This document shows, one piece after another, positions 23,822 to 64,000 of a stretch of 64,000 nt of DNA. The translations under genes and the position numbers were made by a program. This DNA is from Verrucomicrobiales bacterium (lineage in GTDB: Bacteria; Verrucomicrobiota; Verrucomicrobiia; Verrucomicrobiales; SLCJ01). The notes under the pieces were generated by a model. That model did not search any database, was not told the DNA's origin, and was given only the letters and a program-made list of their open reading frames with translations. Position 1 is the first letter of the stretch, and the number at the start of each line of letters is the position of its first letter. The stretch spans positions 10,953-74,952 of the forward strand of contig JBJTQJ010000124.1 in NCBI GenBank assembly GCA_046075565.1. The letters are read 5' to 3'.

Positions 23822-24360
23822 ACCACAGATTTCACAGATGGGCACGGATAAGATTCTGCATGAGTTGGTTTTGCTTTGGAGGATTCGTCTAGCTGGAGAC
23901 GCGTTTTATTCCGAGCTTGGCATGCTTGAAGTTGAGCAAGAGGGCCGTTTTCAATCGCGTGATATTGAGGCAACCGAGCATCTGGGCCAAATGGTTTTCG
24001 TTGAAGTCGCTGACCACTTTGGTGTCGACGATGATTCGGTTTGCGACAATGAGGTCTGGCACGAGTGTGCCTATAAGTTCATTCTGGTAGTGGACGGGGA
24101 ATTGTTTTTGTGAATCGCATTGGCATCCTTGTTTTGTAAGTTCTATTACCAGAGCCCGTTCATAAAGCTTTTCATCCAACCCGGGCTTGAGTGTGTTTCG
24201 CACGGTATAGGACGCGCCAATGATGGTTTCGGTGAGTTGTGTGTCGCTCTGCATATTGGGATGAATGATGGAGGGGGATTTTCACTATACTTCCCAAGGC
24301 GATCTTATGGCGTGCACGTGTTCTCCCCGATATCTGTGTGCATCTGTGTAATCTGTGGTT
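23822..24360 (-). mobile_element. GxxExxY cassette A bounded by ~30-bp inverted repeats (CACAGAT units)
   Basis: ACCACAGAT-TTCACAGAT-GGGCACGGATA (23822-23850) versus the reverse complement of 24331-24360, AACCACAGAT-TACACAGAT-GCACACAGATA; mobility is inferred. Confidence 0.7.
23889..24254 (-). CDS. GxxExxY family protein (PD-(D/E)XK nuclease-like fold)
   Basis: GLDEKLY (GxxExxY), VPDLIVANRIIVDTK, LLLNFK. Confidence 0.88.
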   Translation of the reverse strand: MQSDTQLTETIIGASYTVRNTLKPGLDEKLYERALVIELTKQGCQCDSQKQFPVHYQNELIGTLVPDLIVANRIIVDTKVVSDFNENHLAQMLGCLNITRLKTALLLNFKHAKLGIKRVSS

Positions 24361-47805: not shown

Positions 47806-47947
47806 AACCACGAATGGACACGAAGGAACACGAATAAGAAAACAAAAACCGCATGTTTACCAAAGAAACTTCGCTCGCTCGTTTTCGTAGTTTTCATTGT
47901 CTTCTAACCTTTTGAAAATTCGTGCCCATTCGTGCCCATTCGTGGTT
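47806..47947. mobile_element. Gene-less (MITE-like) cassette with the same inverted repeats as GxxExxY cassette B
   Basis: AACCACGAAT-GGACACGAAG-GAACACGAAT, an ~82-bp AT-rich spacer, then ATTCGTGCCC-ATTCGTGCCC-ATTCGTGGTT. Confidence 0.72.
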
Positions 47948-47985
47948 CCGTTCCCGTCCATCTCCTCTCACTTTCCCGCCATCCA

Positions 47986-50373
47986 ATGAAGCCAATCCCA
48001 TTCTCCCCATCCCGTCGCTCCATAAGCCGGAAATCTTCCCCACATCTTGTGCTGGGAACCGCCCTTGGTTGCTGGTTGTCCGTGGCCGCGCCAGGCATGG
48101 CCCAGGAAGCCGCCACTGAACGTCCGCGGGCAACGGCGGAGCTCGATCGCGAGGCCAAACAACTTTATGATCAGGCGATCGAGTTGATGGATTACAAACA
48201 ATATGATCGCGCCGTCGCCATGCTGGAAACCGTGGTGCGCGACAACCAGGGCAGCTTGATCGCCTACATGGCCCACATGGCCATGGGCAAACACCATCTG
48301 GATCAAAACAAGGAGAAAGAAGCCCTCGACCATTTTCTCCTGCTCACCCGCTTGCTTGCTCCTGTTCCCGGCGAACAACAATCACCGGAACTGCGCGAAC
48401 TCTTTAACGAGGCGCTTTTCCAAGCCGGATTCAGCCATTACAAGGCCGGTCAATACGCGGCCGCCTTCCCGCTCCTGCGCCGCTTGACCGAAGTGGCGGG
48501 GAAAACCAAGTGGGCGAACCAAGCCTACTTCTACATCGGGATGAGCCACTACAACCTCAAGAACTGGAATAAGGCCATCGATTCCTTGTCTCTGGTGGGC
48601 ACCGAAGTCGAGGACACCGAAGAAGCTGCCGACGATCTCGGGCGCATCGAGATTGGACAAAGGTTCTATTCGAAGATCGTGGACGCCGACGTCCCGATCA
48701 TGCGCAAGCTCAATGTGGCGGTCACGGCCAAGGTCACGGTTTCCAGCGGCGATGCGGAAACCATTACCGGCACTCCGGTGCCCGGCAAAGCCAATGAAAT
48801 GCTCGCTTCCGCTCCAACCGTGCTCGGCGAAGCGAAGCCGGGCGATGGAGTTATCCAGATGCTCGGCGGCGATACCCTGACCGTTGTTTACGTGGACGAC
48901 AGCACCCAGGACGGACAGAAAGGCATCGAGCGTGTCGGCAAGGTCCGCGCGGTCAGCACCGGCACCGTCGGCTTTTTCCTTGGCGACAACTCCACTCCCG
49001 CCTATCTGGCGTATCCCGGCCAGCCGCAGGTCGTGATGCTGCGCGATGCCGATCTCGACAAATCACCCGCCGCCGAGCAAACCACGCTCACCATCATTTC
49101 CCGTTACAAGGTAGAATCGGAGGAGCCGGCCGAGAATGCCGACGCCCTCGATATCTTCGCCCTCGACGATGCCAACAAGGTGTCGTGGAAAGAACGGGAC
49201 CGCGTGACCATCAAACTGGTGGAAACCGGCGAAGGCCCGCAGATCCGCTCCGGCGCGTTCCTCGGGAAAATCGACCTTGCCCCCGTCGTCCCGGGAGCCG
49301 AACCCGATACCGCCGATGCCTTGCTCACTTGTGACGAACTCGACGAGTTGCTCGTCACCTACACCGATGATGTCCACCTCTATGGCGATGAATCCCGCAC
49401 CAGCGAAGCCAAGATCAAGGTCGCTGGCTCGGTGAACTCGGGCGTGACCGCCGATCAATACGTGGTCTTCGAGGAACAACTCAAGGCGCGCAAGGGTTCG
49501 GTGGAAGCCGAGGCACTCGTCGGCCTGGGAGCCATTTACAAGGACATGGGTCTCGACCAACGGGCCTCCATGCGCGCCAAGGAGGCCCTCGACAAAATCG
49601 ATCCCATCATTCTCAACCGGAGCAAACTCCCCGGCGAATTGGTGGAAAATGCCTTCCGCCTCAAGTGGGAAAGCGAGCTGCTCAAGAACGACTTTGCCGC
49701 CGCCACCGCCACCTGCCTTGCTTTCAACCGCCTTTATCCGGAATCCGTGCTCGCCGACCAGGCCTTGATGACGCTCGGGCGCAGTTTGGCTGATAAAGGA
49801 GATTTCGCCCAGGCCGTTGGTGTTTATGGCCGGGTGCTGCAACTTCAGAACCCGATCTCGGCCGCCGAAGCCCAGTTCCGCATCGGCGAAACCTTGCAGA
49901 AGGAAGCCGAGGAAAAGGCCAAGGCCGCCGATGCCCACAACAGCAAATGGGGAACCGCCGGACTGGGCAAAACCACGCTGCAGAATATGATGAGCCCGGC
50001 CATCGCCGCCTACCGCAAAACCTTCCAGACCTATCCGGAAAGTTCCTATGCCGCGGAGGCCCTCGGGCGGGTGGTCCGATATTTTGTCGAGAGCGAGGAC
50101 TACGCCCAGGCGGTCGAGCTACTGGAGAGTGTCTTCAATGATTTCCCCGACGCGGCTTTCCTCGATGAGATGCTGTTGCTCTGGGCCAATGTCGGCTTCC
50201 GCATGGGCGACATGGAACTGGCCAAAGGCAAACTCCGCCAGCTTCTCTTCGAGTATCCCGCAAGCAACCATGTGGAGGAAGCGCGCAAGCGGCTCGCCTG
50301 CATGGAAGCAGGCAGTGCCGATGCCCCGACCGGGGAGGCTGGAGCCGCCGCCGGTGCGGGAGCCAAGGAATAA
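47986..50373 (+). CDS. Secreted TPR protein with central beta-sandwich-like modules
   Basis: Signal peptide; N- and C-terminal TPRs (YPESVLADQAL, YPESSYAAEAL); central DADLD...ETG..RSGAFLG module. Confidence 0.8.
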   Translation: MKPIPFSPSRRSISRKSSPHLVLGTALGCWLSVAAPGMAQEAATERPRATAELDREAKQLYDQAIELMDYKQYDRAVAMLETVVRDNQGSLIAYMAHMAMGKHHLDQNKEKEALDHFLLLTRLLAPVPGEQQSPELRELFNEALFQAGFSHYKAGQYAAAFPLLRRLTEVAGKTKWANQAYFYIGMSHYNLKNWNKAIDSLSLVGTEVEDTEEAADDLGRIEIGQRFYSKIVDADVPIMRKLNVAVTAKVTVSSGDAETITGTPVPGKANEMLASAPTVLGEAKPGDGVIQMLGGDTLTVVYVDDSTQDGQKGIERVGKVRAVSTGTVGFFLGDNSTPAYLAYPGQPQVVMLRDADLDKSPAAEQTTLTIISRYKVESEEPAENADALDIFALDDANKVSWKERDRVTIKLVETGEGPQIRSGAFLGKIDLAPVVPGAEPDTADALLTCDELDELLVTYTDDVHLYGDESRTSEAKIKVAGSVNSGVTADQYVVFEEQLKARKGSVEAEALVGLGAIYKDMGLDQRASMRAKEALDKIDPIILNRSKLPGELVENAFRLKWESELLKNDFAAATATCLAFNRLYPESVLADQALMTLGRSLADKGDFAQAVGVYGRVLQLQNPISAAEAQFRIGETLQKEAEEKAKAADAHNSKWGTAGLGKTTLQNMMSPAIAAYRKTFQTYPESSYAAEALGRVVRYFVESEDYAQAVELLESVFNDFPDAAFLDEMLLLWANVGFRMGDMELAKGKLRQLLFEYPASNHVEEARKRLACMEAGSADAPTGEAGAAAGAGAKE

Positions 50374-50405: not shown

Positions 50406-53400
50406 ATGGGACGACTTCCTTCATCCGACAATCAACCCCCGAGCCCACCTGCCGCCGCAAGGAGACGGCGGAGGACGGGAATTTTCCCCCTGCTCCCCGG
50501 TCTAGCTATCGGGTGTATGGTATTTGTTAGCCCATCTCCGGCCGGGCCGTTTGAGGAACGCCGTGCATCGGTGGCGCGAGCCGTGGAGATCCAATCGGAG
50601 GCCGACATGGCTGCCTTGCTCCAGGCCGGGCTTGACGAGAACCTGCCCGCGCCCGCCATCATGCTGGTCCGCCAGTGGATGCGCCAGAATCTTCCCAAGG
50701 ATGCCCGGATGCTCGGTCTGGCCGCCCGCGCGGCCCAATTGAGCGGCGATGCCAAGGAGGCATCCGCGCTTTACCAGCAATTCCTCAAATTAGCCGATCC
50801 AAAATCCGCCGAAGCAAGTGACGCCATCACCGCGCTGCATGGACTTCTGCTCAACCAACTCGCCGATCCCGGCACGGCTTACGCCTTCGCGCGCGCCGAA
50901 GCGGAACGTCTGGCCGTCAATCCGCGCTTCCGCCAATATGATCGCTGGTTCCTCGATCTGGCCAAGGAGCGCCAGGACGCCGAAGGTGTGGCCATCCGTT
51001 TGTTAGCCATCATCAAGGCGGGTGCCCCGCAGGCCGAACTGGTAACTTTTTATGACGGCGACTTCCGCTGGTTGCTCGAGACCGTTGATGGTTATGTCGA
51101 TCGTCCGGGTTCCATTCCGCTGACCCAGGATCTTTTCGATGCCATCACCGAACTTGCCGCCGTCATCAAACACGATGAGGAAATGAAACTCCGGCTCGAT
51201 TGGGCGGCGTCCGTCAAAGCCTACAATCTTTCTTTGCTTGGCGACGATACCAAGCGGGTCGGGAAAAGAAAACGCAAGCAGGGACCCGCGGCGGAAACGG
51301 AGAAGCTCGAACCGACCGCTGCTCCCATCGCCGAGGCAACCGCGCTTTTGACGAAGTATCCCGGCCATGCCAAGTGGGTGCAGGATGGATGGGCCGGCGG
51401 TGGCAATGGCCCATACTACCGGGGCGACCCCAAGAAATATTGGACACCCGATATCGATGCGAAGATGGCCCCCATCCTCGCCGCTTTTCCGAAGCTGAGC
51501 CCACTTCAACAAGCCGATCTTTTGCAATCATGGAAACCATCAGCCTACTCCGGTTTCCCTGATGTCGGCTCGGTCAAGGCCGTGCGCGATTTCCTCGCCG
51601 CCAACCCCGCATTGATGAATAGCCGCGATGGTTTGCTCATCCTGGACAAGGAGTGGAACAAATTAACGCCGGAAGAGGCGCAGCAAATGGCGCCGTCTTT
51701 GGAAAAGGCAACGGATCCAAGGGCTTCGTTGATTCGGTCCATCGCGGCAGGGGGCAAGGACTTGGACAAGGTGATGGCCGCCTTGTTAGGACCGGAGGTC
51801 TGGCGCCTGGGGCCCAACGAATTGAACGGCCCATATGCCGATCTCCTTTGGCATTACTGCGGTCGTCCGGGCGAGGCGGCCAAGCGGGACGCGGAGATTG
51901 CCAAGGCCAAGGCGCTGGCCGCCACCTTCGCCGCCGGCGATGTGAAAAAGGAAGACCCGGCCGACAAACGTCTGGCCGCCCTTCGCATGCTCTGGGTTGA
52001 TTTTAAATCGTCCCAACCGAAAATCCCGGCTGTTTTCACCCGCCTGGTTGCCGTTTTGAAGGTCACGCCGGAAGCGGTGCCGGAATTGCTCAAGGATGCG
52101 AGCCCGGAAGCGCAGATCCTCGTCCGTGACGCCCTTGCAGCTGGATTGCAGGACACTACGGGCATACTGGAACGCGATGACCGTGCAAGGGGCATTTCCT
52201 CCTCGGTTTACAGCCCTTGGTTTTCGCGTCTGATCGCACTCCATGGTGGCCTTGAACGTTTGAAGCAAAGCAGGAAGGAATGGATTGCGCCCCATCCGAT
52301 GGAACCGGCGCTCCGTGCCGCGTTGGCAGCGCAACTGCCACAAGGCAAAGTCGAGCCATGGTTGGTCATGGCTTGGATTAACACGCAGTTTCCCGAAAAC
52401 AATGCCGAGTCGGTGAAGTTGATGCAGACGCTCTTCCAATCTCCGGTCTGGAAGACCCTGCCCACCGAAGCCCGCTTTGCCGCCCGCTCATGGTTCAAAG
52501 AAAACGCCATGACTCCAGCTGAATGGGCGCTCGTGCAGAGCTGTGATCCTGCCAAGCTTTCCCAAGCCTTGCTCGCTCTCCCCAAGGAAGCGGATACCGC
52601 GACCACCGTGGCCGCATTGAAATCCACCATCGAAGCGTTGACGTCCGCGCCGATGCGGGTGGAAATCCAGGGCCTTGAGCAACTCGCCGCCGTGAGCGAC
52701 GAGGTCTTCACCGCTCGGGAAGTCCAAGCGCTCATTCTGGAACTGGTCGATTCGCTCCATTCCTTCGAACCGACCAGAGCTTTCGGTGACCGGCTACTGG
52801 CCCACGCCCTCAAACAAGCCGACACCGCCGCCTTGCTGCGTTTGGCTCCCTATCTCTGGCGGCAAGTTGAAAGAGTGGCCAACCACCTCCCGACGATGCT
52901 CGCCCGCATCGACTCGCTCGCCGATGACCAACCGTCCGCCGCCAATGCCCTCGCCAGCACCGGCTTGGGCACCATCGATCGTTATCGCACCGGCCACTTG
53001 TGGTTCAAACGCGAGAGCGATGTCCCTCGCTTGCGCGCCGCCCGCAGCAAGACCGCCGTCAAACTCGGCCTCGTGGTCATTCCCGTCACCCCCGATGATC
53101 CAACCTTTCCGGTCTATCAATCCCAAGCCGACTGGCTGAACGACAACGAGGACAGCGCGTGGAATCTGCTGGACGCCAATTGGGAGCACTTCCTCAAGAT
53201 CCATCGCGAGTTGTCCTTTGGATACCAAATGTGGACACTGCGCCGGACCATCATCGCCCGCGACGACCTCCGCCAGGAAGCTTTGATCAAATCCCTGCGC
53301 GGATGGAGCAGCGAGCCCGGTTGCCCGCTGACGGCGGTGGAAAAAGCCATGATCGAAATGGCCTACGGCGACATCGCCGTGCAACGCGGACAACTTCCCG

Positions 53401-56400
53401 AAGCGAAGGAAATTTTCTCCCGCATCCAGACCAATGAAGCCAATCTCGGCCTCCCCGTCCGTCATCAGGCTGCGTTGCGGGTCGTAGCCGTGCTGCGTCT
53501 GGCCAAGGATTATGATGGCGCATTGAAAGCCGTCACCGAACTGGAGATGGAACGGGTTCCGGAGATCTGGTCGGATGTCCGTTATGCCCGCGCCGAAGTC
53601 CATTTCGCCAATGAAGATTTCGAAAGCACGAAGGCGGATGTCGAATCGATCCTCGCCCGCGATTCCAACCACGCGGACTCCCGTATCCTGCTCGGCAAAG
53701 TGCAGCTCAAGTTGCAAAAGTTGATGGATGCCACCGAACTCGAATTCGGTTCGACCAGCAGCCAGGATGCATTGGTGCCCGGCGAAAAACTCAAGGTCAC
53801 GCTGAATGACCCGACCCTCGCCGTCTCCGGCGCGGGCACGGCCATCGAAGTGGTGGTCTGGGCGGTCTCCGGTGACAAAGAGACGTTTTTCCTCCGCCAG
53901 TTCGGCGATCAGAAAACCAAGTTCCGCGGGGAAGTGGCCACCGCGCTGGGTGCTCCCGTGCCCGGCGATGGAACCCTCCAGGTCATCGGGGACGACGAGG
54001 TGTTCTACGCCTATGCCGAAAGTTTCCGCGAGCGGATGAACCAGCAGGATGAAAAACGGGGCGGACCGATCACCATCGCTTCCGATTCCATGCTCATGGC
54101 CTCCGCCCGCAAATTGCTCACCGAGGCCGAACAACGCACCGCTGATTTGAACGCGCTCATGGAGACCGTGAAAGACGTGCGAAGCGATCAGCAAGCCGAA
54201 AAAGAGGCGCGCAAGAAGATGGCCGCGCGCGCGCTCGATGCCGATGCCCGCGCCGAAAGATCCGGGGAAATGGACGAGGAGGAATTCGGACGATTCCTGG
54301 TCAGCGTGGTCAAACCCGGCAACCCGATCAACGTGCGGGTCATCGATCCGGATCGCAGCCGGACCGCCGGAGTTGATGAGCTCGCGGTCGGCATCGCCAG
54401 TTCAAGTGGCGACAGCATTTCCCGGATTGTGCTCAAGGAAACCGGCACCCACACCGGATGGTTCGAGGGCAGTGTCCCGACCGCCGGCGCCCAGGCCATG
54501 GCCTTCGCCCGCGCCTCCGAACCCGGGCGCAACCCGAACATGGTCATTAGTCCGGTCGAATCCTATCCGGCATGGAAGGCTGCTCCCGACCGTTCCGGCA
54601 TTTTCGACTTCACCGTTGATCTCAACGACAATCATCCTATCGGCCAGCTCGACATCCTCGCCGCCGAACCGGGAACGAAACTCAAGAAGTTCATGATCCA
54701 AACCGGCATGAACCCGCAGGACATGACAACCGTGGCGGCCTATCCGCGGCATTTCGGGGGTATTCCGAATGCATGGCGACCGTCGGTCACGATCATGAAC
54801 GACGCCGATCGTTATCACAACAACAATGATCGATCGGTCTATGATTTGGGGGAACTCGGAGCGCAGATCGATCGCGGCTGGATGACCCAGCAATTCGCGG
54901 CGGGTATCGCGGAAAACGTGGCCGGCCCGTCGGCGGCGATGGATCCCGCCATTCCGGCCAAAGTGAAGTGGTTGCGCAACAATCAGCACCACAATGCGCA
55001 TGTAGTTTATCGTTTCAGGGGTTATTTCCATGAAGCGGCGGATGTCATGCGCCGGTTCAAACTGGAACTCGGGCCCTACAAAGTCCCCGCCGGCACCCAT
55101 CCGAGCGTGTCGAATCCCCCGCAGTTCCTGCTGGCGGTGAATGGAAAGCCTATCACCAGCAAGGAAAAGCCGGATGAACTTGAGGGCGAGATCGAGCTTC
55201 GCCGCGGCTTGCAGCGGTTTGAAATCTGGGCGACCGGCTGGGATTGCACGATTGGCTTCGGTCGTTCCATCAAGTTGCTGGCCAATCTTTCCCCCGCCGG
55301 CGAAATGGTCGATTGCCCGGATAACTTCTTCGACCCGACCACCTTCCCGGCCGGGCTGCTCGAACACCGCAACGCCCCCGCCACTCTCACACCCGGCGAC
55401 GATGGAACACGCTTCACGGTCAAATTCGCTCCCGATTCGCGCGCCCGTTTGATCCGTCTGGTTTTCCTCGAACAGGAAGGCCCGGTGCCCGCGCTCAATA
55501 AAATCACCATGACCACCCCCGACGGGAAAAAGCTGCTTCCGGTCAAAGAAGACTTCGCCGCCCTCAACAAGAACGAAACTTTGGAAATCCTCGGTGGCGA
55601 CAAGATTGCCGTGCGTTATATCGACGATCGTTTTGTAACAAAAACCAAGGCCAATCAGGAGCGTTTCCTCACGGTTTCCTTCGCCGACGCGAAGGTCGAG
55701 TTCGCCGACATGACCCCGCGGTTTGACAGCCGAAAGGGCGAGGTCGCGCCGTATTACGAGCGACTGCTGCGTTTCCGCCATAACGAGCCGCTGGCCCTTG
55801 CCGTCTTCGACGCTGACATGGATGTGACCGTGCAACCGGACAAACTCAAGGTGAGCCTGACCAGCCAGGCCGGAGGCACCCGCGAATTCGAGGCGATGGA
55901 AACCGGAGATTCTACCGGGATCTTCAAGCTTGTTATCACCCCGGTGCCCGGCACTCCCGCCGGAGAAGGGCAATTCCAGGTTGCGGAAGGCGGCACCATC
56001 AGTGTCATCTACCGGGATATCGACAACAACCGGCCCGGTGTCCCGACCGACCGGCTGGCCTCCATCGAACACGCGGCTTTCACCAAGCCGGTGATCCGGG
56101 TGGCCCATGCCGAAGTGAGTCCGCTGCCCGCCGAAGAAGCCGGTGGTCCGGTTCATTTGCACGACGGATTCTGGCGGAACACTGAGGAACAATCCCAGCG
56201 CGAACTGGCCAGCATGGGGCTCATCCAACCCCGGTGGAAAATCGACCACAGACTTCTCTCCCCGGAAGAAGCTCCGGAAGGTGGTGTCGCCGTGGTCCAC
56301 GGGCGTGAGATGTATCTCGAGGTGGTCGCTCCCCAGTTGGCCTTGGGTGTCCTTTCCGAAATCAAGGTGTATGCCCAGACTGATTCGGGCCGCAAAGCCG

Positions 56401-58226
56401 GTGGTGGAGGTGCTGCTGGTTTTGATATCACGGTTCCCGGCACCATGGAGCTGACGGGCATCTTGCCAGGACCATTGTCTTTCAAAGGTGCCAGGTCGAA
56501 TATCATGGAAATCCCCAGTTACGCCGCCGGCCCAATCCATCCGTCCGGAAACCAACTCACCACCGATCGTTTCCTGGTTTCCGTCCCGCTCATCGCCGCC
56601 ATGCTTCCCGACCACGGGGTTGTCCCCGATGAAGAAAAAGCGGAATTGCGGAAACGGCTGATGGGCATGTATGGCGAGTCGGCAGCCTACGGGATGCAGC
56701 GTGGTCTCGTTGTCCGCCCCGGGGATCGTGTCCATCTCGGATTCCGTTACCAGGATGCCGCCGGGGCCGAACAATGGGCCGCCACCACCGCCAAAGTGAT
56801 TACCCATCCCGTGCTCGACGTGATGGCAGATGATTACCGCACCAAACTGACCAGCGCCTTCGTCGGCGAAACACTTTATCTGCGTGTCGTCGATCTCGGT
56901 GCCGACACCACCGACAACGTGGACGCCCTCTCCGTGACCATCCAAGCCAAATCCGGAGCCAAAGGCCGGGTGGAGCTCCGCGAAAGCGGCCCGCACACCG
57001 GCATCTTCAGGGGCGGGGTCGAGCTCGCTTATGTGAAGGCGATCGAGGCTGCAAAGTCCGACAAGTCCGACGGGTCAGACAAGTCTGACAAGTCCGACCC
57101 TGAAGAAGAGATCCCCCCGACCATTTCCCAAGGCCAAACCCTCGCTGTGATCTACGACGACACCGTGGCCGTGCGCTACACCGATGCCAATGGGCTCAAG
57201 ACCGACACCCATCTTGTGACGATCAGCAAGGGGGCCGATGGCAGCATCGAACCATTCTCCAAGATCTATCAGGATCAGGAGGTGGCCATGCGCACCCAGT
57301 TCTCGATGGCCGAAGCCTATCTCGAATTGGCCAAACGCCACCGCCTGCTCGGGGAGCACGAGGCCGCCGCCTTGGAATACACCACGGCCAAACAACTGCT
57401 GTCCTCGGCCATGGAGCAGTTCACCGATCCCGAGACCCGAGCCCAGGCCGAATATCTGCTCGGCAACCTGACCGCCGAGGAAGCCGACACCACGACGGAA
57501 CCCGCCCTCAAGGAAACCCGTTACCGCGCCGCCCTCTCGCGCTTCTTGAATGTGACCGGAAGTTATCCCAACACCCTGCACGCGTCCAAGGCCCAGTATC
57601 GCATTGCGGTAATTTACGAAGCGCTCAAGGAACCGGAAATCGCCGCCCAAGAATACGTGAAGCTGGCCTACAAGTATCCGGAATCGGAATTTGTCGCCAC
57701 TTCCATGGCCCGGCTCGGAAGCCATTTCCTTAAGTTGGCCAGCGCCTACGAAGAAAAAGCCAAACCCCTGCTGGCCAAAGGCGAAGCTGAAGGAAACCAG
57801 GATGCCCTCTTCGAAGGCCAAGCCATGCAAAAGATGGCCGAAGCCGAATACCTCAAGACCGCCAGCATTTTCGGGCGTCTTCAGGAAAGGTTCCCCGGCA
57901 ATCAACTGGCTGGCCAAGCCGGATTGCGCGCCGGACAGGCCTTCATGCGCGCCCGCCGCGATCAGGATGCCCTCGATGCCTTCCTGAAGGTCGTGGACGA
58001 GGAAAACTACGATGGCGTGAAGATCCGCGCCCAGGCCATGTATTGGGCGGGCATGTGTTACCAGAAACTGCGCCAACAGATGGCCGCCTACGCCATCTTC
58101 AAACGCCTGACCTACGACTTCCCCGAAAGTGAATGGGCCGCCTTCGCCCGCGCCCAGTTGTCGCAGGAGAGCATGATCAACTTGGAAACGAATCTGGAAC
58201 TCGAACGGTTGGAGGGTAAAAAATGA
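50406..58226 (+). CDS. Giant (~2600 aa) secreted TPR / multi-beta-sandwich protein; start uncertain (50406 or 50517)
   Basis: Long uninterrupted ORF; TPR clusters; repeated V.D.D...ETG..TG.F modules; PA14-like and discoidin-like segments. Confidence 0.85.
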   Translation: MGRLPSSDNQPPSPPAAARRRRRTGIFPLLPGLAIGCMVFVSPSPAGPFEERRASVARAVEIQSEADMAALLQAGLDENLPAPAIMLVRQWMRQNLPKDARMLGLAARAAQLSGDAKEASALYQQFLKLADPKSAEASDAITALHGLLLNQLADPGTAYAFARAEAERLAVNPRFRQYDRWFLDLAKERQDAEGVAIRLLAIIKAGAPQAELVTFYDGDFRWLLETVDGYVDRPGSIPLTQDLFDAITELAAVIKHDEEMKLRLDWAASVKAYNLSLLGDDTKRVGKRKRKQGPAAETEKLEPTAAPIAEATALLTKYPGHAKWVQDGWAGGGNGPYYRGDPKKYWTPDIDAKMAPILAAFPKLSPLQQADLLQSWKPSAYSGFPDVGSVKAVRDFLAANPALMNSRDGLLILDKEWNKLTPEEAQQMAPSLEKATDPRASLIRSIAAGGKDLDKVMAALLGPEVWRLGPNELNGPYADLLWHYCGRPGEAAKRDAEIAKAKALAATFAAGDVKKEDPADKRLAALRMLWVDFKSSQPKIPAVFTRLVAVLKVTPEAVPELLKDASPEAQILVRDALAAGLQDTTGILERDDRARGISSSVYSPWFSRLIALHGGLERLKQSRKEWIAPHPMEPALRAALAAQLPQGKVEPWLVMAWINTQFPENNAESVKLMQTLFQSPVWKTLPTEARFAARSWFKENAMTPAEWALVQSCDPAKLSQALLALPKEADTATTVAALKSTIEALTSAPMRVEIQGLEQLAAVSDEVFTAREVQALILELVDSLHSFEPTRAFGDRLLAHALKQADTAALLRLAPYLWRQVERVANHLPTMLARIDSLADDQPSAANALASTGLGTIDRYRTGHLWFKRESDVPRLRAARSKTAVKLGLVVIPVTPDDPTFPVYQSQADWLNDNEDSAWNLLDANWEHFLKIHRELSFGYQMWTLRRTIIARDDLRQEALIKSLRGWSSEPGCPLTAVEKAMIEMAYGDIAVQRGQLPEAKEIFSRIQTNEANLGLPVRHQAALRVVAVLRLAKDYDGALKAVTELEMERVPEIWSDVRYARAEVHFANEDFESTKADVESILARDSNHADSRILLGKVQLKLQKLMDATELEFGSTSSQDALVPGEKLKVTLNDPTLAVSGAGTAIEVVVWAVSGDKETFFLRQFGDQKTKFRGEVATALGAPVPGDGTLQVIGDDEVFYAYAESFRERMNQQDEKRGGPITIASDSMLMASARKLLTEAEQRTADLNALMETVKDVRSDQQAEKEARKKMAARALDADARAERSGEMDEEEFGRFLVSVVKPGNPINVRVIDPDRSRTAGVDELAVGIASSSGDSISRIVLKETGTHTGWFEGSVPTAGAQAMAFARASEPGRNPNMVISPVESYPAWKAAPDRSGIFDFTVDLNDNHPIGQLDILAAEPGTKLKKFMIQTGMNPQDMTTVAAYPRHFGGIPNAWRPSVTIMNDADRYHNNNDRSVYDLGELGAQIDRGWMTQQFAAGIAENVAGPSAAMDPAIPAKVKWLRNNQHHNAHVVYRFRGYFHEAADVMRRFKLELGPYKVPAGTHPSVSNPPQFLLAVNGKPITSKEKPDELEGEIELRRGLQRFEIWATGWDCTIGFGRSIKLLANLSPAGEMVDCPDNFFDPTTFPAGLLEHRNAPATLTPGDDGTRFTVKFAPDSRARLIRLVFLEQEGPVPALNKITMTTPDGKKLLPVKEDFAALNKNETLEILGGDKIAVRYIDDRFVTKTKANQERFLTVSFADAKVEFADMTPRFDSRKGEVAPYYERLLRFRHNEPLALAVFDADMDVTVQPDKLKVSLTSQAGGTREFEAMETGDSTGIFKLVITPVPGTPAGEGQFQVAEGGTISVIYRDIDNNRPGVPTDRLASIEHAAFTKPVIRVAHAEVSPLPAEEAGGPVHLHDGFWRNTEEQSQRELASMGLIQPRWKIDHRLLSPEEAPEGGVAVVHGREMYLEVVAPQLALGVLSEIKVYAQTDSGRKAGGGGAAGFDITVPGTMELTGILPGPLSFKGARSNIMEIPSYAAGPIHPSGNQLTTDRFLVSVPLIAAMLPDHGVVPDEEKAELRKRLMGMYGESAAYGMQRGLVVRPGDRVHLGFRYQDAAGAEQWAATTAKVITHPVLDVMADDYRTKLTSAFVGETLYLRVVDLGADTTDNVDALSVTIQAKSGAKGRVELRESGPHTGIFRGGVELAYVKAIEAAKSDKSDGSDKSDKSDPEEEIPPTISQGQTLAVIYDDTVAVRYTDANGLKTDTHLVTISKGADGSIEPFSKIYQDQEVAMRTQFSMAEAYLELAKRHRLLGEHEAAALEYTTAKQLLSSAMEQFTDPETRAQAEYLLGNLTAEEADTTTEPALKETRYRAALSRFLNVTGSYPNTLHASKAQYRIAVIYEALKEPEIAAQEYVKLAYKYPESEFVATSMARLGSHFLKLASAYEEKAKPLLAKGEAEGNQDALFEGQAMQKMAEAEYLKTASIFGRLQERFPGNQLAGQAGLRAGQAFMRARRDQDALDAFLKVVDEENYDGVKIRAQAMYWAGMCYQKLRQQMAAYAIFKRLTYDFPESEWAAFARAQLSQESMINLETNLELERLEGKK
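57054..57098 (+). repeat. In-frame 5 x 9-bp tandem repeat (AAGTCCGAC) encoding KSDKSDGSDKSDKSD
   Basis: AAGTCCGAC AAGTCCGAC GGGTCAGAC AAGTCTGAC AAGTCCGAC. Confidence 0.85.
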
Positions 58227-58624
58227 AACTCGAACCACGAATGGACACGAATTCACACGAATTGCTCTTAAAGGATGAAGTGTTTGCCGTCGTCGGCTGC
58301 GCTTTGGATGTTTTGCGTGAACTCGGTCATGGTTTGCATGAGAAACCTTATGAAAACTCGATGGTTGTTGAGTTCGGCAGGCGAGGGATCCCTTTTCAGC
58401 AGCAGCCCCGGTTTCCTATCAACTACAAGGGTGTCCACGTGGGCGAGTATGTTCCGGATCTGATCACGCACGGCCAAATCGTCATCGACACCAAAGTCAT
58501 TGATCGGATCACGAGTCATGAATTAGGGCAGGTCATGAACTATCTGAGGATCACAGGCCTCCGGGTCGCGGTAATCCTGAATTTTAAAAACGCAAAACTG
58601 GAATGGAAAAGGGTCGTTCTATGA
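58223..58624 (+). CDS. GxxExxY family protein (PD-(D/E)XK nuclease-like fold)
   Basis: GLHEKPY, VPDLITHGQIVIDTK, QVMNYL, ILNFK; ATGA overlaps at both ends. Confidence 0.9.
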   Translation: MKLEPRMDTNSHELLLKDEVFAVVGCALDVLRELGHGLHEKPYENSMVVEFGRRGIPFQQQPRFPINYKGVHVGEYVPDLITHGQIVIDTKVIDRITSHELGQVMNYLRITGLRVAVILNFKNAKLEWKRVVL

Positions 58625-58658
58625 AAAAATTCGTGTTCATTGGTGTCCATTCGTGGTT
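58233..58658 (+). mobile_element. GxxExxY cassette B bounded by 30-bp inverted repeats (CACGAAT units)
   Basis: AACCACGAAT-GGACACGAAT-TCACACGAAT (58233-58262) and ATTCGTGTTC-ATTGGTGTCC-ATTCGTGGTT (58629-58658); mobility is inferred. Confidence 0.72.
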
Positions 58659-61600
58659 TGCCGTGTCAGCCTTCGCCGCGCCTCTGGACGATCAAATCAC
58701 CGCTTTCAAAGGTGCGGCTGCTCAGACCGAGGCATCGGTTTCCGTTATTCTCCAGTCCGGGCTCAAGGAGGGGCGCAGCGCACAGGCTTATGCCGCGGTC
58801 AAACCTTGGTTGAGCGCCCAACCGGCGCTTTCGCCCAAGGCCATGTTCGAAGCCGGACAGGTCGCGGAAAGGGCAGGGGAGTGGTCCGACGCGGTTGGGT
58901 TTTACCGTAAGTTTCTCAACCAACCGACGCTTGATGCTACGCTGGCCGCCGAGGTCGTGCCTGCCACCTATGTGCTGCTGATCAACCATCTCGCGGATTC
59001 GGAAGGCGCGTATCTCTACATGCGCGAGGCCGGTGATCGCTTGCGCGGATACGGACGCGCCCGGCAGTTCGACACGTGGTTTATCGAACAGGCCAAGTCG
59101 CGCTCCGATGTGCCCGCGCTTTGCCTCCGGTTGTCCAGCATCTTGGCCGAGGACGCTGGCAAAGCCACCACCCATGCCGCCGACCTCGCGTGGGTCTGCA
59201 CCCAGCTTGAAACACTGGCCGCTCCCGATGAGGCGTGGTTCGAAGCGGCCGGGAAGTTGGCCGGATTGCCGAATGTTCCCCCCGCCATCAAAGCCCGCAT
59301 CGGCTGGTCGATGGCCATTCTGCCATTCAGCACGGAAGCCACCGAACTTTTCCGTGCCAAGAAGCCGGTTCCGGAGACCTTGCTGGATAAACCGCGCGCG
59401 GCCGCCGCGGCGCTTTTGGCTGCCTCACCTTACGAGGGCTCGATTTCGGTCGCCCGGGGTTGGATGAACATGAACGAGGGTCATACCCCGAATTTGCAGG
59501 ACTATGTCGCCCAACATCGAGAGTTCAAAACCGCGCCGCTCCTCGCGGCACTCGCGACTTTGTCCCCGGCGCAAGTTCATTCCGTGCTCGTTTCCCGGGG
59601 ATGCCCGCGCGGGCGCCCGATCTCGATGCTATTTTCCACCGCCGAATTGCGGTCGTTGGTCCAGAAGATTCCGTCCGCTTTCAACTCGTTGTTGGCGGTT
59701 GATGTCCCGCTTCTGGATCCCACCCTCACGGTCGAGGAGGCCCGCGCCCTGGCTCCCCATCTCGCCCGCAACCCGCACCCGCAGGCCGCGATCATCCGTG
59801 CCATCGCCGCCGCCGGTTCCCTCGAACCGGAGCTTCTTGTTCCGGCTTTGATCAAGTCCGAGACCTGGCGGTTCAGCACGATCAAAGATGTTGCCAAAGC
59901 GCTGACCGACAACAGGATTGCCGAAGGAAAAGTGAACCAACTTCTCAAGGATGTCCCCGAAGCTGCTCCTGACCCACTGGCTGCCCAAGTCCAGGCCTCT
60001 GCCAAGCCGGAAGACCGACGCGCTGCCTTTGAGAAACTCTCCAAGGAACTTCTTTCACCCTCGCCATCGACCAGCGGGTTACTGCAACGATGGAAGGATC
60101 TTTTCGCCAATGCGCCGGATGCCGAGTTGAATACCATGCTCAAGACCCTCTCCGGGAATTTGCAGGGCGAAGGCGAAATGCTCTTCCGGTTCACTTTGGA
60201 TAACACCACGATTAGCAAGAGCGGCCGCCTGCCTTGGAGAGCGTATTTGCATGGCAACCACTTTGCCTACCACCGGGGGCCGACCCAAAAAGGGGGAGCC
60301 GACTTTCTCGCCCATGTGGAAATTTTGCTGCGCCAGCAAATGCAGGCGGGAACGATCAATGAAACGATTTTCGGAGTCTGGCTCCATTCCAATAATGTCG
60401 GCAAACCGGAATCCAAGGCCTTGTTCAAGGAACTGCTCAATTCGCCGGCCATGGCCAAACTCAATCCGGACTATCTGAAGATCGCCGGCGATAGCAATCT
60501 TTTCCCCGACCTTGTGTTATCGGCTTCCGTCGCGACGGTTTCTCCCGCGGTGATCAGCCGTGAATTGATCGATCTCCCCGGCAACGCGAACCCGGCTCAA
60601 GTGGAAGCCGCCTTCAAGGCCGTGGTCGATCGTTTGGCCACCAACCCACAGCCGGTTGCGCCCATCGCACTCCATAAGGTCGCCCAACTGCCCGAATGGT
60701 CGGCCCAAACCCGCGATCTCGCCGCCCAACTCTTCGGCAAACACCCCCCCATCGGAACCTTCCCGCCCAAACAAGGATGGGAGCCCATGGTGATCCGCGC
60801 GACCAAGGAACTCAAGGCTGGCCAACAATGGGGCGCCATCGAACCCTGGGCCGCCGGGCTCTGGCACGCCGCCGCCGCCACCGACGATGAGCGCACCTAC
60901 GATGCCGTCGAGGCTATGATCGCCTATGCCGAAGCGGCCTTGGAAGCGGGCGCGCCATCCTCCGCCATGACCATCGCCCGCGGCGGATTACGCAGCACGG
61001 CCGTGAAAAATCTAACCACCCGCACGGAACCAAAATTGGCCACCATGCGCGCGCGCTTGCAGAAAGCGGTCGGCATGGCCGCCGGTGCCATCGGTGCCTT
61101 CGAGATTCCGGTGGACGAAACCGATCCCGCTTTCCCCATTTACAAATCGCAGGCCGAATTCGTGCAAGGAAACCTGGATTCCGCGTGGGAGCTTTACACC
61201 GCCCATGCCGCCAAACTTCCGGAAGTGCTGCGCCAATTGCCGGTCGATTATTCGTTCTGGCTCTTGCAGCGGAACATGGAAACCAACCGCGCCGAAGACG
61301 CCGAAGCACTGATCAAAGAGCTGACCATCTGGTCGCGCCAGGCCGAAGGGACTTTCACCGCTGAACAGGATGCCCGCCTGAGGATCGCCTATGCTGATTT
61401 GGCCCTGCGCAAGGGTGCTTATCCGACCGCCCGGGCCTGGTATCGCCGGGTCGCGGATGCCGCTGAATACCAGGGCACCGAAATGTATCTGCTCGCCGCT
61501 CTTGGTTCGGTGAAAGTGGATCGAGTTTCGAAGAACTATTCGGCCGCCATGGCCGAACTCGACAAACTGGCCAAACTCACCAATCCCGCCTTCCGTAGCC

Positions 61601-64000
61601 GTGTCAGTTATGCCCGCGCCGAGGTTCTGATGGACCAGGAGAGTTACCAGGAAGCGCTCGATGAAATCGAGACCGTCCTCCGCCGCGAACCCAAACATCC
61701 CGACGCCCTGCTTCTCCAAGGACGAATCAATTTCTTCATCCGCAAGTTGGTCGAGGCCAGCGAGATCGAACTCGGACCTTCGGAAACCGACACCGTGATC
61801 GTGCCCGGCGAAGCGGTGAAGATCAACCTGCGCGACCCGACCCTCCGCGTCTCCGGCATGGGAGCGGACATCGAAGTCGAGATCTGGGCCAAGTCCGGCG
61901 ACCGCGAACGGGTCATGCTTTACCAACTCGGTGACAGCAAGGACAAATTCCGCGCCGAAATCCCCACTGCCCTCGGCCCGCCCACTCCCGGCGACAAAGC
62001 CCTACAGATCCTCGGCGTGGATGAAATCCGCTTCGGCTACTCGAAAGAGTTCCGGGCCAAGATGAAGGACCTGCCCGCCGATCCGGATACCGTGATCAGC
62101 GTCGCTTCCGATGCTTATCTCGCGGTGTCCGCGGGGGCCTTCCCTCCGCGGGAAGGGGAACGCAAACTCGCCATCGAGGAACTCGGGTTGTCCACCGCCC
62201 AGGCCGCCCTCGGCACCCGCAGCGTGCGGCCCGGCAATCCGGTTTTCATCCGCGTGACCGACGCCGACCGCAGCGTGACGAGCGGCCAGGATGAAATTGC
62301 TGTCAGCATTACCACTTCCTCCGGCGATGAAATCCGCCAACTGCCGCTCAAGGAAACTTCTCCCTACAGTGGTGAGTTCGAAGCGACTGTTCCGACCAGC
62401 GGCGGCCAGGCCCTCGCCTTTGCCTCCGAAAGCGCCCCCGGCCGCGACCCGAACATGGCCATCAGTTCGCGCGAGTATCCAGGATGGCAAGGTGAAGCCG
62501 GCAAAAAGGATGTCACCCGCATTTTCGGCGTCGATCTGAACGACAATGCCGCTCCCGGCACGATGACCATTGAATCCGGTGGTGCCGGCAGTGCGCTCAC
62601 CCACTTTGTCCTTCAGACATCAATGAGCGGAACCCATTGGAAAACCGGCGTGCGTTTCCCCTCCGACCCCGCTCCCTGGGATGGTCGTCCGCATTTGTCC
62701 TCGATTCCCATTTTCCGCTCCGGCCTCGAGGTCTCGGATCCGGTCGATCGCACCTTGCCCGAAGATTGGAAGGAAAACCTGGAACTGAAGTCCGCCCGGC
62801 CCGGAATGAAGTATCTCGCCGCCTATGTGCCCAAACTCTCCGATGGCAACTTGCCCGTGGTCGATACCGGTCATCCCGGGTATAGTGCGCTTGTTAGGTA
62901 TCGTGCCCTGTTTTACCAGCCCGCTGCCGCCGTCCGGCGTTTCCAATTGGCGGGGCTTCCCGGCAGTGATGGAAAGACCATCAACACCATCTTCCTGCTC
63001 AATGGCCAGCCCGCCGAAGCCGACTCCGAGGATCCCTTTTCCATCACCCGCGAGTTGGCTCCCGGTCTCCACGAGATCGAATTCTGGCACCGCGAGGGCC
63101 GGGACAATTTCCTAAAACGCCGCCCGGTGATCCTTTGCGACGAACCGGGCAAACAGGAATTGGTGCCTTGCCCGGATTCCATGTTTGATCCCGCAAGCTT
63201 CCCCGAAGGATTACGCGCCCAACTTCCCGAGCCGCCCGTTATCACATCGTCCGCGCCCGGCAAATTCGATGTGACCTTTGGAAAAAACACCCAAACCCGG
63301 CTGCTGCGTTTGGTCATCCAAGGGTTCGAAGGCTTGGTTCCCACCATCACCAAGGTCAAGCTGACCGATCGCTCCGGAACCGCATTGTTGCCGGTGGCCG
63401 GCGACTTCCTTGAACTCCGCCAGAATTCCCAGCTCGAAGTCCTGCCCGGCGATCAAATCACCGTCCGTTATATCGATCCGGTCACCGCCACCCCGCGCCG
63501 CGAGCGTCATGAAGGCAGACTGACCGCCGCCTTCAACACCGGCACCCTCACCGCGTCTTTCCTCAATTACGAAATGAACAAGGAAGGCGAACGTGTCCTC
63601 GTGCTCGAACCCATCCGCCGCTTCCGTCATGACGACGCCGTGGCCCTGGTCGTTGACGATGCCGATCTCGATGGCGGCCCGACCCGCGACACCGTGGACA
63701 TCAAAATCAAGAGCAGTGCGGGGGCCGAAATCACCATCAAGGCCGTGGAAACGGAAGATCAGAGCGGGCGATTCATCGGGCGAGTCTTCCCGGTCAAAGG
63801 ACAACCGGAACGCGATTCGGAAATCCACCTCCCGGAAGGCGGAACCCTGACCGCCCTATACCGCGATGTGGAAAACCTCGATCCCGGCATCCCAACCGAT
63901 CGTTCGGTCACGATTACCCAGGCCAAATACGAGGTGCCCGGCATGCAGGCTTACGCCATGGCATCGGAAGCCTTGCCACCCCCGCCGCCGAGCAAGAAAG
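58621..64000 (+). CDS. Second giant secreted TPR protein (>1790 aa, 3'-partial), paralog of 50406-58226; absent from the ORF track
   Basis: MKKFVFIGVHSWFAVSAFAAPLDDQITAFK...; spot-checked in frame to the window end. Shared blocks IPVDETDPAFPIYKSQAEF / IPVTPDDPTFPVYQSQADW and PGRDPNMAIS / PGRNPNMVIS. Confidence 0.85.
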   Translation, partial: MKKFVFIGVHSWFAVSAFAAPLDDQITAFKGAAAQTEASVSVILQSGLKEGRSAQAYAAVKPWLSAQPALSPKAMFEAGQVAERAGEWSDAVGFYRKFLNQPTLDATLAAEVVPATYVLLINHLADSEGAYLYMREAGDRLRGYGRARQFDTWFIEQAKSRSDVPALCLRLSSILAEDAGKATTHAADLAWVCTQLETLAAPDEAWFEAAGKLAGLPNVPPAIKARIGWSMAILPFSTEATELFRAKKPVPETLLDKPRAAAAALLAASPYEGSISVARGWMNMNEGHTPNLQDYVAQHREFKTAPLLAALATLSPAQVHSVLVSRGCPRGRPISMLFSTAELRSLVQKIPSAFNSLLAVDVPLLDPTLTVEEARALAPHLARNPHPQAAIIRAIAAAGSLEPELLVPALIKSETWRFSTIKDVAKALTDNRIAEGKVNQLLKDVPEAAPDPLAAQVQASAKPEDRRAAFEKLSKELLSPSPSTSGLLQRWKDLFANAPDAELNTMLKTLSGNLQGEGEMLFRFTLDNTTISKSGRLPWRAYLHGNHFAYHRGPTQKGGADFLAHVEILLRQQMQAGTINETIFGVWLHSNNVGKPESKALFKELLNSPAMAKLNPDYLKIAGDSNLFPDLVLSASVATVSPAVISRELIDLPGNANPAQVEAAFKAVVDRLATNPQPVAPIALHKVAQLPEWSAQTRDLAAQLFGKHPPIGTFPPKQGWEPMVIRATKELKAGQQWGAIEPWAAGLWHAAAATDDERTYDAVEAMIAYAEAALEAGAPSSAMTIARGGLRSTAVKNLTTRTEPKLATMRARLQKAVGMAAGAIGAFEIPVDETDPAFPIYKSQAEFVQGNLDSAWELYTAHAAKLPEVLRQLPVDYSFWLLQRNMETNRAEDAEALIKELTIWSRQAEGTFTAEQDARLRIAYADLALRKGAYPTARAWYRRVADAAEYQGTEMYLLAALGSVKVDRVSKNYSAAMAELDKLAKLTNPAFRSRVSYARAEVLMDQESYQEALDEIETVLRREPKHPDALLLQGRINFFIRKLVEASEIELGPSETDTVIVPGEAVKINLRDPTLRVSGMGADIEVEIWAKSGDRERVMLYQLGDSKDKFRAEIPTALGPPTPGDKALQILGVDEIRFGYSKEFRAKMKDLPADPDTVISVASDAYLAVSAGAFPPREGERKLAIEELGLSTAQAALGTRSVRPGNPVFIRVTDADRSVTSGQDEIAVSITTSSGDEIRQLPLKETSPYSGEFEATVPTSGGQALAFASESAPGRDPNMAISSREYPGWQGEAGKKDVTRIFGVDLNDNAAPGTMTIESGGAGSALTHFVLQTSMSGTHWKTGVRFPSDPAPWDGRPHLSSIPIFRSGLEVSDPVDRTLPEDWKENLELKSARPGMKYLAAYVPKLSDGNLPVVDTGHPGYSALVRYRALFYQPAAAVRRFQLAGLPGSDGKTINTIFLLNGQPAEADSEDPFSITRELAPGLHEIEFWHREGRDNFLKRRPVILCDEPGKQELVPCPDSMFDPASFPEGLRAQLPEPPVITSSAPGKFDVTFGKNTQTRLLRLVIQGFEGLVPTITKVKLTDRSGTALLPVAGDFLELRQNSQLEVLPGDQITVRYIDPVTATPRRERHEGRLTAAFNTGTLTASFLNYEMNKEGERVLVLEPIRRFRHDDAVALVVDDADLDGGPTRDTVDIKIKSSAGAEITIKAVETEDQSGRFIGRVFPVKGQPERDSEIHLPEGGTLTALYRDVENLDPGIPTDRSVTITQAKYEVPGMQAYAMASEALPPPPPSKK

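Follow-up and report, generated by a model that had tools for sequence, protein, structure and literature searches.

The stretch of DNA analysed here (hereafter the window) comprises 64,000 nucleotides (nt) of contig JBJTQJ010000124.1, positions 10,953 to 74,952 of the forward strand (GenBank assembly GCA_046075565.1). It comes from a freshwater Verrucomicrobium and carries a GxxExxY nuclease gene that lies between two giant genes, here called giant1 and giant2, and is bounded by inverted repeats. Comparison with relatives indicates that this arm–nuclease–arm cassette probably entered the 5′ end of giant2 right behind the ATGA that coupled it to giant1, giving rise to a translational relay and to a leader coded by the right arm. 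By sequence and comparison, the open reading frame (ORF) of the cassette now uses the ancestral ATGA start, and giant2 starts at a second ATGA. Ten arm codons together with a short native tail, AVSAFA, contribute to a 19-residue Sec-like leader, which ends before the conserved APLDD.

All features of the junction lie on the plus strand. Giant1 (50406..58226; 2606 residues, P0003) and giant2 (58621..63999) are paralogous, both being TPR/BamD-like. The ORF of giant2 runs from ATG 58621 for 1793 codons up to the end of the window and contig, where it is truncated; orthologs have ~2450-2520 residues. The TGA stop of giant1 lies within a first ATGA (58223..58226), which also starts the GxxExxY gene (58223..58624; 133 residues, P0001, PD-(D/E)XK superfamily) and has the position of the giant1-stop/giant2-start ATGA of cassette-free orthologs. 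The second ATGA (58621..58624) holds the GxxExxY stop (58622-58624), and the giant2 ATG is made up of the third base of the closing Leu codon (CTA) and that TGA. An additional in-frame ATG at 58603 is an alternative giant2 start, likewise upstream of the right arm. The arms are 31 nt each, 90% complementary and separated by 364 nt. The left arm (58233..58263), AAC followed by three CACGAATNNN units, codes PRMDTNSHE, residues 5-13 of the GxxExxY protein, which are N-terminal to the Pfam/NCBIfam domain (domain start at residue 18-20); its internal in-frame ATG at 58241 is the start used by most annotated members of the GxxExxY family. The right arm (58628..58658) is the reverse complement of the left arm, with ATTGGTG instead of ATTCGTG as its middle unit, and codes (K)FVFIGVHSWF within giant2 codons 3-13. 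The putative Sec-type leader, MKKFVFIGVHSWFAVSAFA (58621..58677), includes the arm as residues 4-13 and ends in an AFA site before APLDD. An earlier note on this DNA, made from the letters alone, had described the coding content of both arms and the two ATGA overlaps, and both descriptions are borne out, the right arm with its frame confirmed.

The cassette junction in relatives

A search of a protein database with the first 400 residues of giant2 retrieved 66 proteins, the window's own included, nearly all of which have a signal-like N-terminus that ends right before a conserved (A/S/T)PLDD. The arm-coded sequence MK[KTV]F[VM][FS]IGVHSW is present in six of them (P0004, P0006, P0007, P0011, P0014 and P0046, the window's protein counted), and the remaining orthologs have ordinary leaders or leaders read through other repeats (FRVFRGS, SDRSVRSV and LGYWVFGY types). 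A scan of species-representative genomes found 169 relatives; 75 distinct loci were retained, and 13 of these, without the N-terminus in the match, were dropped. CACGAAT arms stand at the junction in three of the 62 loci left (L040, L065 and L072), the only ones at which tblastn found GxxExxY. When 401 genomes of the order were searched, 11 gave a match, and two loci were added, L239 (genome G222) and L240 (genome G331). The cassette is present at the same junction in five other Verrucomicrobiales genomes, making six copies with the window, and the gene pair itself is present in only one of three other genomes of the window's own family.

A full-length GxxExxY gene is found in four of the six copies (window, L072, L239 and L240). 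Different in-frame internal deletions have occurred in L065 and L040; in either locus the two arms remain, and so does an open mini-ORF. None of the six loci departs from the spacing "giant1 stop, 6 nt, GAACCACG". The left junction is ATGA in four of them, the ATG of L072 being 3 nt later and the stop of L040 being TAA, and the right junction reads [CT]TATGA in five. In L240, an additional left arm and 20 nt precede the right arm, which carries the consensus unit and reads FVSIRVHSWF. From the end of the arm to PLDD there are 22, 25, 25, 34, 28 and 25 nt across the six loci, a distance that varies and yet is always 1 mod 3; this is the most direct evidence of in-frame arm translation. The right arm is almost certainly translated in frame with mature giant2.

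The alternative that the arm is untranslated, that giant2 starts downstream, for example at GTG 58663, and that the leader-like reading is coincidental is very improbable. This genome is G+C-rich, and long frames that are spurious do cross many of its other arm copies; the Shine–Dalgarno (SD)-like sequence ahead of 58621 is weak, and a search for RNA runs with this stretch found none. Against this alternative, the frame between arm and PLDD is kept at six of six loci despite length changes. GTG 58663 is the sole in-frame start codon between the right arm and the mature domain; it would begin only five residues before the cleavage-type site and leave no hydrophobic core, so that no usable start is found downstream of 58658. 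Furthermore, all 34 ordinary orthologs described below have a leader of 21-47 residues before PLDD. Among the frames crossing the 49 full-length arms in the genome, only the giant2 leader looks real.

The ancestral state of the junction was examined in 58 loci, consisting of 55 genome loci (seven with a short upstream flank were dropped) and the window, L239 and L240; many of them come from close relatives, which makes the counts non-independent. In 46 of the 58, an ATGA holds both the giant1 stop and an overlapping start. All 34 loci with 150 nt or less from the giant1 stop to PLDD have this ATGA and an ordinary leader of 21-47 residues, and the in-frame path from ATGA to PLDD is open in 44 loci, with L045 as a 45th. 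The N-termini of insert-free orthologs, which the earlier note had proposed to compare, are ordinary and signal-like. Since giant1 and giant2 are joined directly by the conserved ATGA in cassette-free orthologs, the cassette appears to have entered a coupled junction, which was rebuilt as a two-step relay. Its landing point would be a few codons into giant2, and it would have taken over the old start and provided a new one. The direct ATGA of the 34 short-spacing loci, together with the cassette ATGA at the left in four and at the right in five of six copies, also supports the claim in that note that the element is translationally coupled into the operon.

Proposed relay, putative leader and history of the cassette

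According to the mechanism proposed here, ribosomes ending giant1 would reinitiate on the GxxExxY ORF, and their passage through the left arm would open a long-range stem of 31 bp; termination at the TGA would then be followed by a new start at the giant2 ATG that overlaps it, 5 nt before the right arm. The production of giant2 would thereby remain tied to that of giant1, as in cassette-free relatives, and such a relay may be the reason why the two lineages that lack most of the nuclease gene keep the arms and an open in-frame mini-ORF. In RNA folds of 58205-58690, the arms pair in both the minimum-free-energy and the centroid structure, and the fold of the whole region has z = -1.97, with 3 of 100 shuffles folding equally well.

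This pairing raises the alternative that the arms are mainly an RNA element, a long stem as in the intervening sequences of 23S rRNA, cut by RNase III or regulating both cistrons, and that the leader reading is incidental, which we regard as quite improbable. In addition to the pairing, this account could explain why both arms are conserved beyond coding needs, the left arm even in the two nuclease-remnant lineages, and the 136-bp relative folds with z = -4.3. Four-helix-bundle genes, presumably of the same S23p family as the ORF of the intervening sequence, occupy the same site in five loci. The size and layout of the cassette also resemble the 428-nt ORF-bearing intervening sequence reported in PMC4990558. 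However, cleavage of the stem would remove the giant2 start and its first codons, the fold of the region beats shuffled sequences only marginally, and no Rfam family matches. The heptamers are conserved and the spacers between them are poorly complementary, which looks more like a set of protein-binding sites.

Returning to the relay with an arm-coded leader, the leaders were judged by heuristics, namely the best 11-residue Kyte–Doolittle mean, the charge of the n-region and the residues at -3/-1. The best means are 1.52-2.21 for the six arm-coded leaders and 1.57-3.24 for the 34 ordinary ones. The leader of the window has a positive n-region (K2 and K3) and A-F-A ahead of APLDD, and thus shows, heuristically, the features of a Sec-type leader cleaved by signal peptidase I. 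The n-region is net positive in arm-coded leaders, and the -3/-1 residues are AxA (window and L065), VxA (L239 and L240), LxA (L040) and LxS (L072). It is plausible that arm-coded leaders act as weakly hydrophobic, Sec-like signal peptides.

Several observations weigh against an old, exapted leader within a conserved relay. The hydrophobicity of arm-coded leaders falls towards the bottom of the range of ordinary ones (1.75 in the window against an ordinary median of 2.29), with His, Ser and Trp in the core. L040 has lost both ATGAs and has TAA stops, the next ATG lying 14 nt past the second TAA. Only two in-frame deletions have been seen, and the chance of both being in frame is 1 in 9. Among the six loci, the nucleotide identity is ~91% for either arm, compared with 59-68% for the flanking coding DNA, and the left arm is equally conserved in the two remnant lineages (L065 and L040). 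As the arms are conserved beyond their flanks, the conservation of the peptide is not creditable to selection on the leader and may only reflect that of the arms; either something other than the peptide would conserve the arms, or the insertions would be young. The Gly-coding ATTGGTG unit of the window is a common variant of the repeat family and not a local adaptation. A change from ATTCGTG to ATTGGTG (Arg to Gly) as a local repair of the leader was considered and rejected: more than 121 metagenome stretches carry the variant, none of 80 examined represents this site, and L240 keeps Arg. On a tree of giant2 orthologs (64 rows, four near-duplicate rows being left out), the arm-coded state requires 8 changes, a minimum of 7 of them being imposed by branches with good support, and a count no higher came out in 39 of 500 shuffles. 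Finally, the GxxExxY protein of the window is 74-75% identical to those of L072, L239 and L240, which is not above the family background of 66-86%, and such identity was rejected as proof of orthology.

The arm-coded P0006 and P0008, which has another repeat family at its N-terminus, are 88% identical over 2440 residues. This difference and the scattered state on the tree imply that the element has often been gained, lost or replaced. The same coding outcome could have another history, in which a mobile homing-type cassette entered, or was recombined into, the junction repeatedly, and the arms would be young or homogenised rather than a leader exapted long ago. We consider this history unlikely. 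It accords with the 7-8 changes on 64 rows, the P0006/P0008 pair, the excess of arm over flank identity and the presence of the arm family in every tested relative but one. The best 119 GxxExxY homologs, at 66-86% identity and from several phyla, their frequent arm-coded start (83 of 119) and the PD-(D/E)XK nuclease coded by the cassette point in the same direction. On the other hand, the spacing of the junction is identical in six of six loci, G222 and G331 each have a single copy of the close GxxExxY subfamily, the two independent decayed remnants imply long residence, and the family has no single homing site, as thousands of unrelated contexts contain it. In the GxxExxY family tree, the four site copies fall in one clade of 26-28 rows, with a support of only 86-91. 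L072 and L239 form the most similar pair in both GxxExxY (87.6%) and giant2 (57.6%). Vertical descent is favoured by this correspondence, the identical junctions and the single-copy state in G222 and G331.

The earlier interpretation is partly supported, being largely right on coding and coupling and wrong on irreversibility. It held that the repeat had been exapted as the core of a signal peptide; the translation of the arm stands, with the frame to PLDD kept in all six copies, and selection on the peptide is unproven in view of the arm and flank identities. It also held that the element cannot be lost cleanly, which is contradicted by the scattered arm-coded state and by the different N-terminal elements of P0006 and P0008. 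Interior deletions that keep both cassette ends do occur. The 362-367-nt "skips" seen in contigs of four DNA runs, considered as a possible cassette-free allele, are other copies of the repeat family and give no evidence either way.

Arm repeats, the GxxExxY family and the insertion hotspot

The arm pattern CACGAATNNNCACGAAT occurs eight times in the window with up to two mismatches, compared with 0.65 expected, and none of 100 shuffles reaches eight; with up to one mismatch, the genome has 99 matches and the reversed control 0. The arm family was found in all relatives tested except one (17-55 matches, compared with 0-2 for the control). Most copies in the genome are inverted arm pairs ~100 nt apart. 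The 23 paired copies taken from the genome (~131-145 bp) have terminal inverted repeats, are small and occur in many copies, as in a family like MITEs (miniature transposable elements with inverted repeats) or REPINs; the same arms that bound the cassette delimit this ~136-bp palindromic repeat family. One copy, at 47809-47944 of the window, has an interior of ~80 nt with an inverted arm of three CACGAAT-type units on either side, and the fold of 166 nt that include this copy is a hairpin (z = -4.3). It adjoins the ORF 47932-50373, the true start of which is probably the downstream MKPIPF, past the arm. An Rfam scan of this 136-bp copy gave no family and only sub-threshold microRNA noise.

The short copies and the cassette have only their arms in common. 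The idea that the MITEs are deletion derivatives of the cassette was rejected, as a profile built from the interiors of 20 MITEs reached, with nhmmer, no E better than 1.4 in those of the six cassettes; L065 illustrates that a MITE-sized derivative of the cassette can arise through deletion. No target-site duplication was noted in the MITE flanks read by eye, with no systematic test made. No transposase gene was found between arms, the sole large arm pair examined being C76:7328-8678, whose ORF was not scanned against family libraries. This pair (G000:C76:7328-8678) has two arm-plus-inner-stem halves 1.35 kb apart around a 359-residue ORF on the opposite strand, and may be a split or composite copy. 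At G222:C1:1957332-1957408, at least eight tandem CACGAATGAA units are present, compared with the usual three, and a normal inverted arm lies ~100 nt downstream. As judged by eye, the short repeat is asymmetric outside the arms, with AACCTAGAAAC at one end and GTTCCATTTTCCT at the other (e.g., C123:4019-4154, C96:19862-19997 and C118:10983-11118), and the reverse complement of GTTCCATTTTCCT, AGGAAAATGGAAC, contains an SD-like sequence and an ATG and reads into the arm as MEPRMDTN. At L118:1880-2080, a CACGAAT copy the size of a MITE extends over the 5′ end of a gene for an amidohydrolase (PF01979, 2.6e-21); if this gene starts at GTG 2005, the right arm codes the beginning of a leader-like N-terminus, FIGVHSWLVAALL, the alternative being a downstream ATG.

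P0001 matches TIGR04256 with 119.9 bits (cutoff 35) and PF13366 (PDDEXK_3) with 112.1 bits (cutoff 22; E 2.5e-32). In a 38-row alignment, G37, E40 and Y43 of the G37xxE40xxY43 motif, D79 and K91 are invariant or nearly so and D89 is nearly invariant, and P0001 has all of these motif and catalytic residues. An AlphaFold2 model of P0001 has a predicted local distance difference test (pLDDT) score of 85.9. The top rows of a Foldseek search of the PDB with this model are restriction-endonuclease-like proteins, Hjc, lambda exonuclease and Cas4, all weak and generic PD-(D/E)XK matches, none with E of 0.001 or less and with template modelling (TM) scores of 0.29-0.47. A sequence search of the PDB with P0001 gave no match, and PADLOC placed it in no defence family. 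In the protein database, 5551 proteins match P0001 at E of 1e-10 or less. The best 119 homologs are 66-86% identical to it, with sources named from several phyla, and in 83 of the 119 the sequence opens with the arm-coded M[DN]TNxHE; therefore, the left arm is integral to the gene of this subfamily and not a peculiarity of one locus. The arms are an integral, conserved part of this GxxExxY subfamily, which is located at the giant1/giant2 junction in both genomes (G222 and G331) where its close members are single-copy. Other GxxExxY paralogs in the genome of the window are flanked by arms of like design built from the heptamers CACAGAT and CACGGAT. One of them lies in the window itself, at 23898-24227 on the minus strand (G000:C124:34850-35179), is 40% identical to P0001 and has inverted arms of CACAGAT units ~130 nt upstream and 50 nt downstream of its ORF. 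PF13366 is entered as "unknown, multiple transfers" in PMC3424549, and among titles and the opening lines of abstracts on GxxExxY no work on the mobility of these cassettes was found.

The giant1/giant2 junction is an insertion hotspot, which elsewhere holds four-helix-bundle cassettes or repeat insertions, mostly joined by ATGA or by in-frame read-through. Four-helix-bundle genes (TIGR02436, E 2.4e-13 to 2.8e-20), of a family that we take to be that of the S23p ORF borne by 23S rRNA intervening sequences, are found at the same junction in five other loci (L085:2356-2769, L113:1813-2208, L087:2075-2866, L089:2117-2890 and L097:2168-2914), those of L087, L089 and L097 being double-length. In L085 and L113, the two loci checked, the gene lies within inverted arms of 31-39 nt, an unrelated repeat with ATACCCAA-type units. 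ATGA overlaps join these cassettes, with one at the giant2 start in L113 and in L089 and three successive ATGAs in L097. In L062, L074, L085, L101 and L113, the ATACCCAA-type right arm reads an LGxWVFGxLGIS-type hydrophobic string directly before PLDD. As the right arms of both kinds of cassette read before PLDD, two unrelated arm families thus form the hydrophobic part of the leader of the same protein. L097 also has, at 1533-2171, a 212-residue ORF of tandem ~33-residue repeats (RDKVARLGSTIKYGRPC...LIELLNLLGPW), joined by ATGA both to giant1 and to the four-helix-bundle gene and without an NCBIfam match. A sibling repeat with CACGGAA/T units reads FRVFRGS-type strings in long N-terminal extensions of giant2 (P0008, P0009, P0012, P0058 and L045), and the L045 frame runs without a stop from the ATGA junction to PLDD, across this repeat.

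As a tentative and rather speculative extension, GxxExxY and four-helix-bundle cassettes, with their arms of 10-nt-periodic units, could belong to a class of selfish elements with translation-compatible ends. The left end may offer an SD-like sequence, an ATG and a hydrophilic leader, and the right end a stop/ATG overlap followed by a hydrophobic, signal-like reading. The leads for this class are the use of two unrelated arm families as the hydrophobic core of the same leader, the ATGA chains that join both kinds of cassette, several MITE copies in which, by eye, a AGGAAAATGGAAC flank stands just before the arm, and the unrelated amidohydrolase gene of L118, which may begin inside a CACGAAT arm. 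If this is true, such elements could settle in tightly coupled operon junctions, or at the 5′ ends of exported-protein genes, and the genes there would not be silenced, a minimisation of harm at the level of translation with a logic comparable to that of introns and inteins.

Significance and comparison with known systems

The junction would represent a selfish cassette that has been absorbed into an essential-looking expression relay, taking the coupled start, returning a new start codon and donating part of an export signal. It offers a testable natural system for translational coupling via a long-range stem, and would show how signal peptides can arise from repeat DNA. It also brings two uncharacterised families with many paralogs, GxxExxY and four-helix-bundle, together at a single insertion hotspot. 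For annotators, odd N-terminal extensions of giant Verrucomicrobial proteins (HEWTRM-, FRVFRGS- and LGYWVFG-type) are likely to be translated or mis-called repeat arms.

Free-standing homing endonuclease genes resemble the cassette in that a nuclease ORF is found at the same junction in scattered lineages. In contrast to them, relatives of the GxxExxY protein occur in thousands of unrelated contexts; to our knowledge, GxxExxY is not a recognised homing-endonuclease family, and we know of no mobilising activity for the protein. In the REPIN/RAYT system, inverted pairs of short repeats form hairpin non-coding copies, and the repeats also flank a protein gene, that of a tyrosine transposase. The arms described here likewise occur as inverted pairs, in hairpin-shaped non-coding copies of ~100-140 bp and on both sides of a protein gene. 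However, the flanked gene codes a small PD-(D/E)XK protein, and the interior of the MITEs is unlike that of the cassette.

An ORF-bearing intervening sequence of 23S rRNA, 428 nt long with an S23p ORF, is described in PMC4990558. The cassette is similar in being ~430 nt long with one small ORF, and that of the window also has inverted repeats able to form a long stem. A further likeness is the occurrence of four-helix-bundle genes, presumably of the S23p family, at the same junction in the five orthologous loci. Unlike the intervening sequence, the cassette lies in the junction of a protein-coding operon and not in a helix of 23S rRNA, its ORF is a PD-(D/E)XK GxxExxY gene, and if it were excised as RNA, the downstream start would be lost.

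According to the review PMC10969869, in-frame fusions with host ORFs are formed by Rickettsia palindromic elements (RPEs) and by other MITEs. Like RPEs, the arms belong to a short palindromic repeat family with copies within coding sequence, translated in frame with a host protein. No prokaryotic repeat arm that codes a signal peptide was found in the literature, and the term "signal peptide" is absent from the available text of that review. The present case differs from RPEs in that the part which is read is just the terminal arm of a cassette with an ORF, and it stands at the very N-terminus, where it would provide the start codon and a signal peptide's hydrophobic core.

Translational coupling via an overlapping stop and start, ATGA, is a familiar arrangement of neighbouring genes. 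The genes described here resemble ATGA-coupled pairs in that adjacent ORFs share an ATGA that is conserved in orthologs, and coupling itself is suggested by this arrangement. In contrast to plain ATGA coupling, the relay takes in an inserted selfish ORF that has an ATGA on either side, and chains of up to three ATGAs are formed, as in L097.

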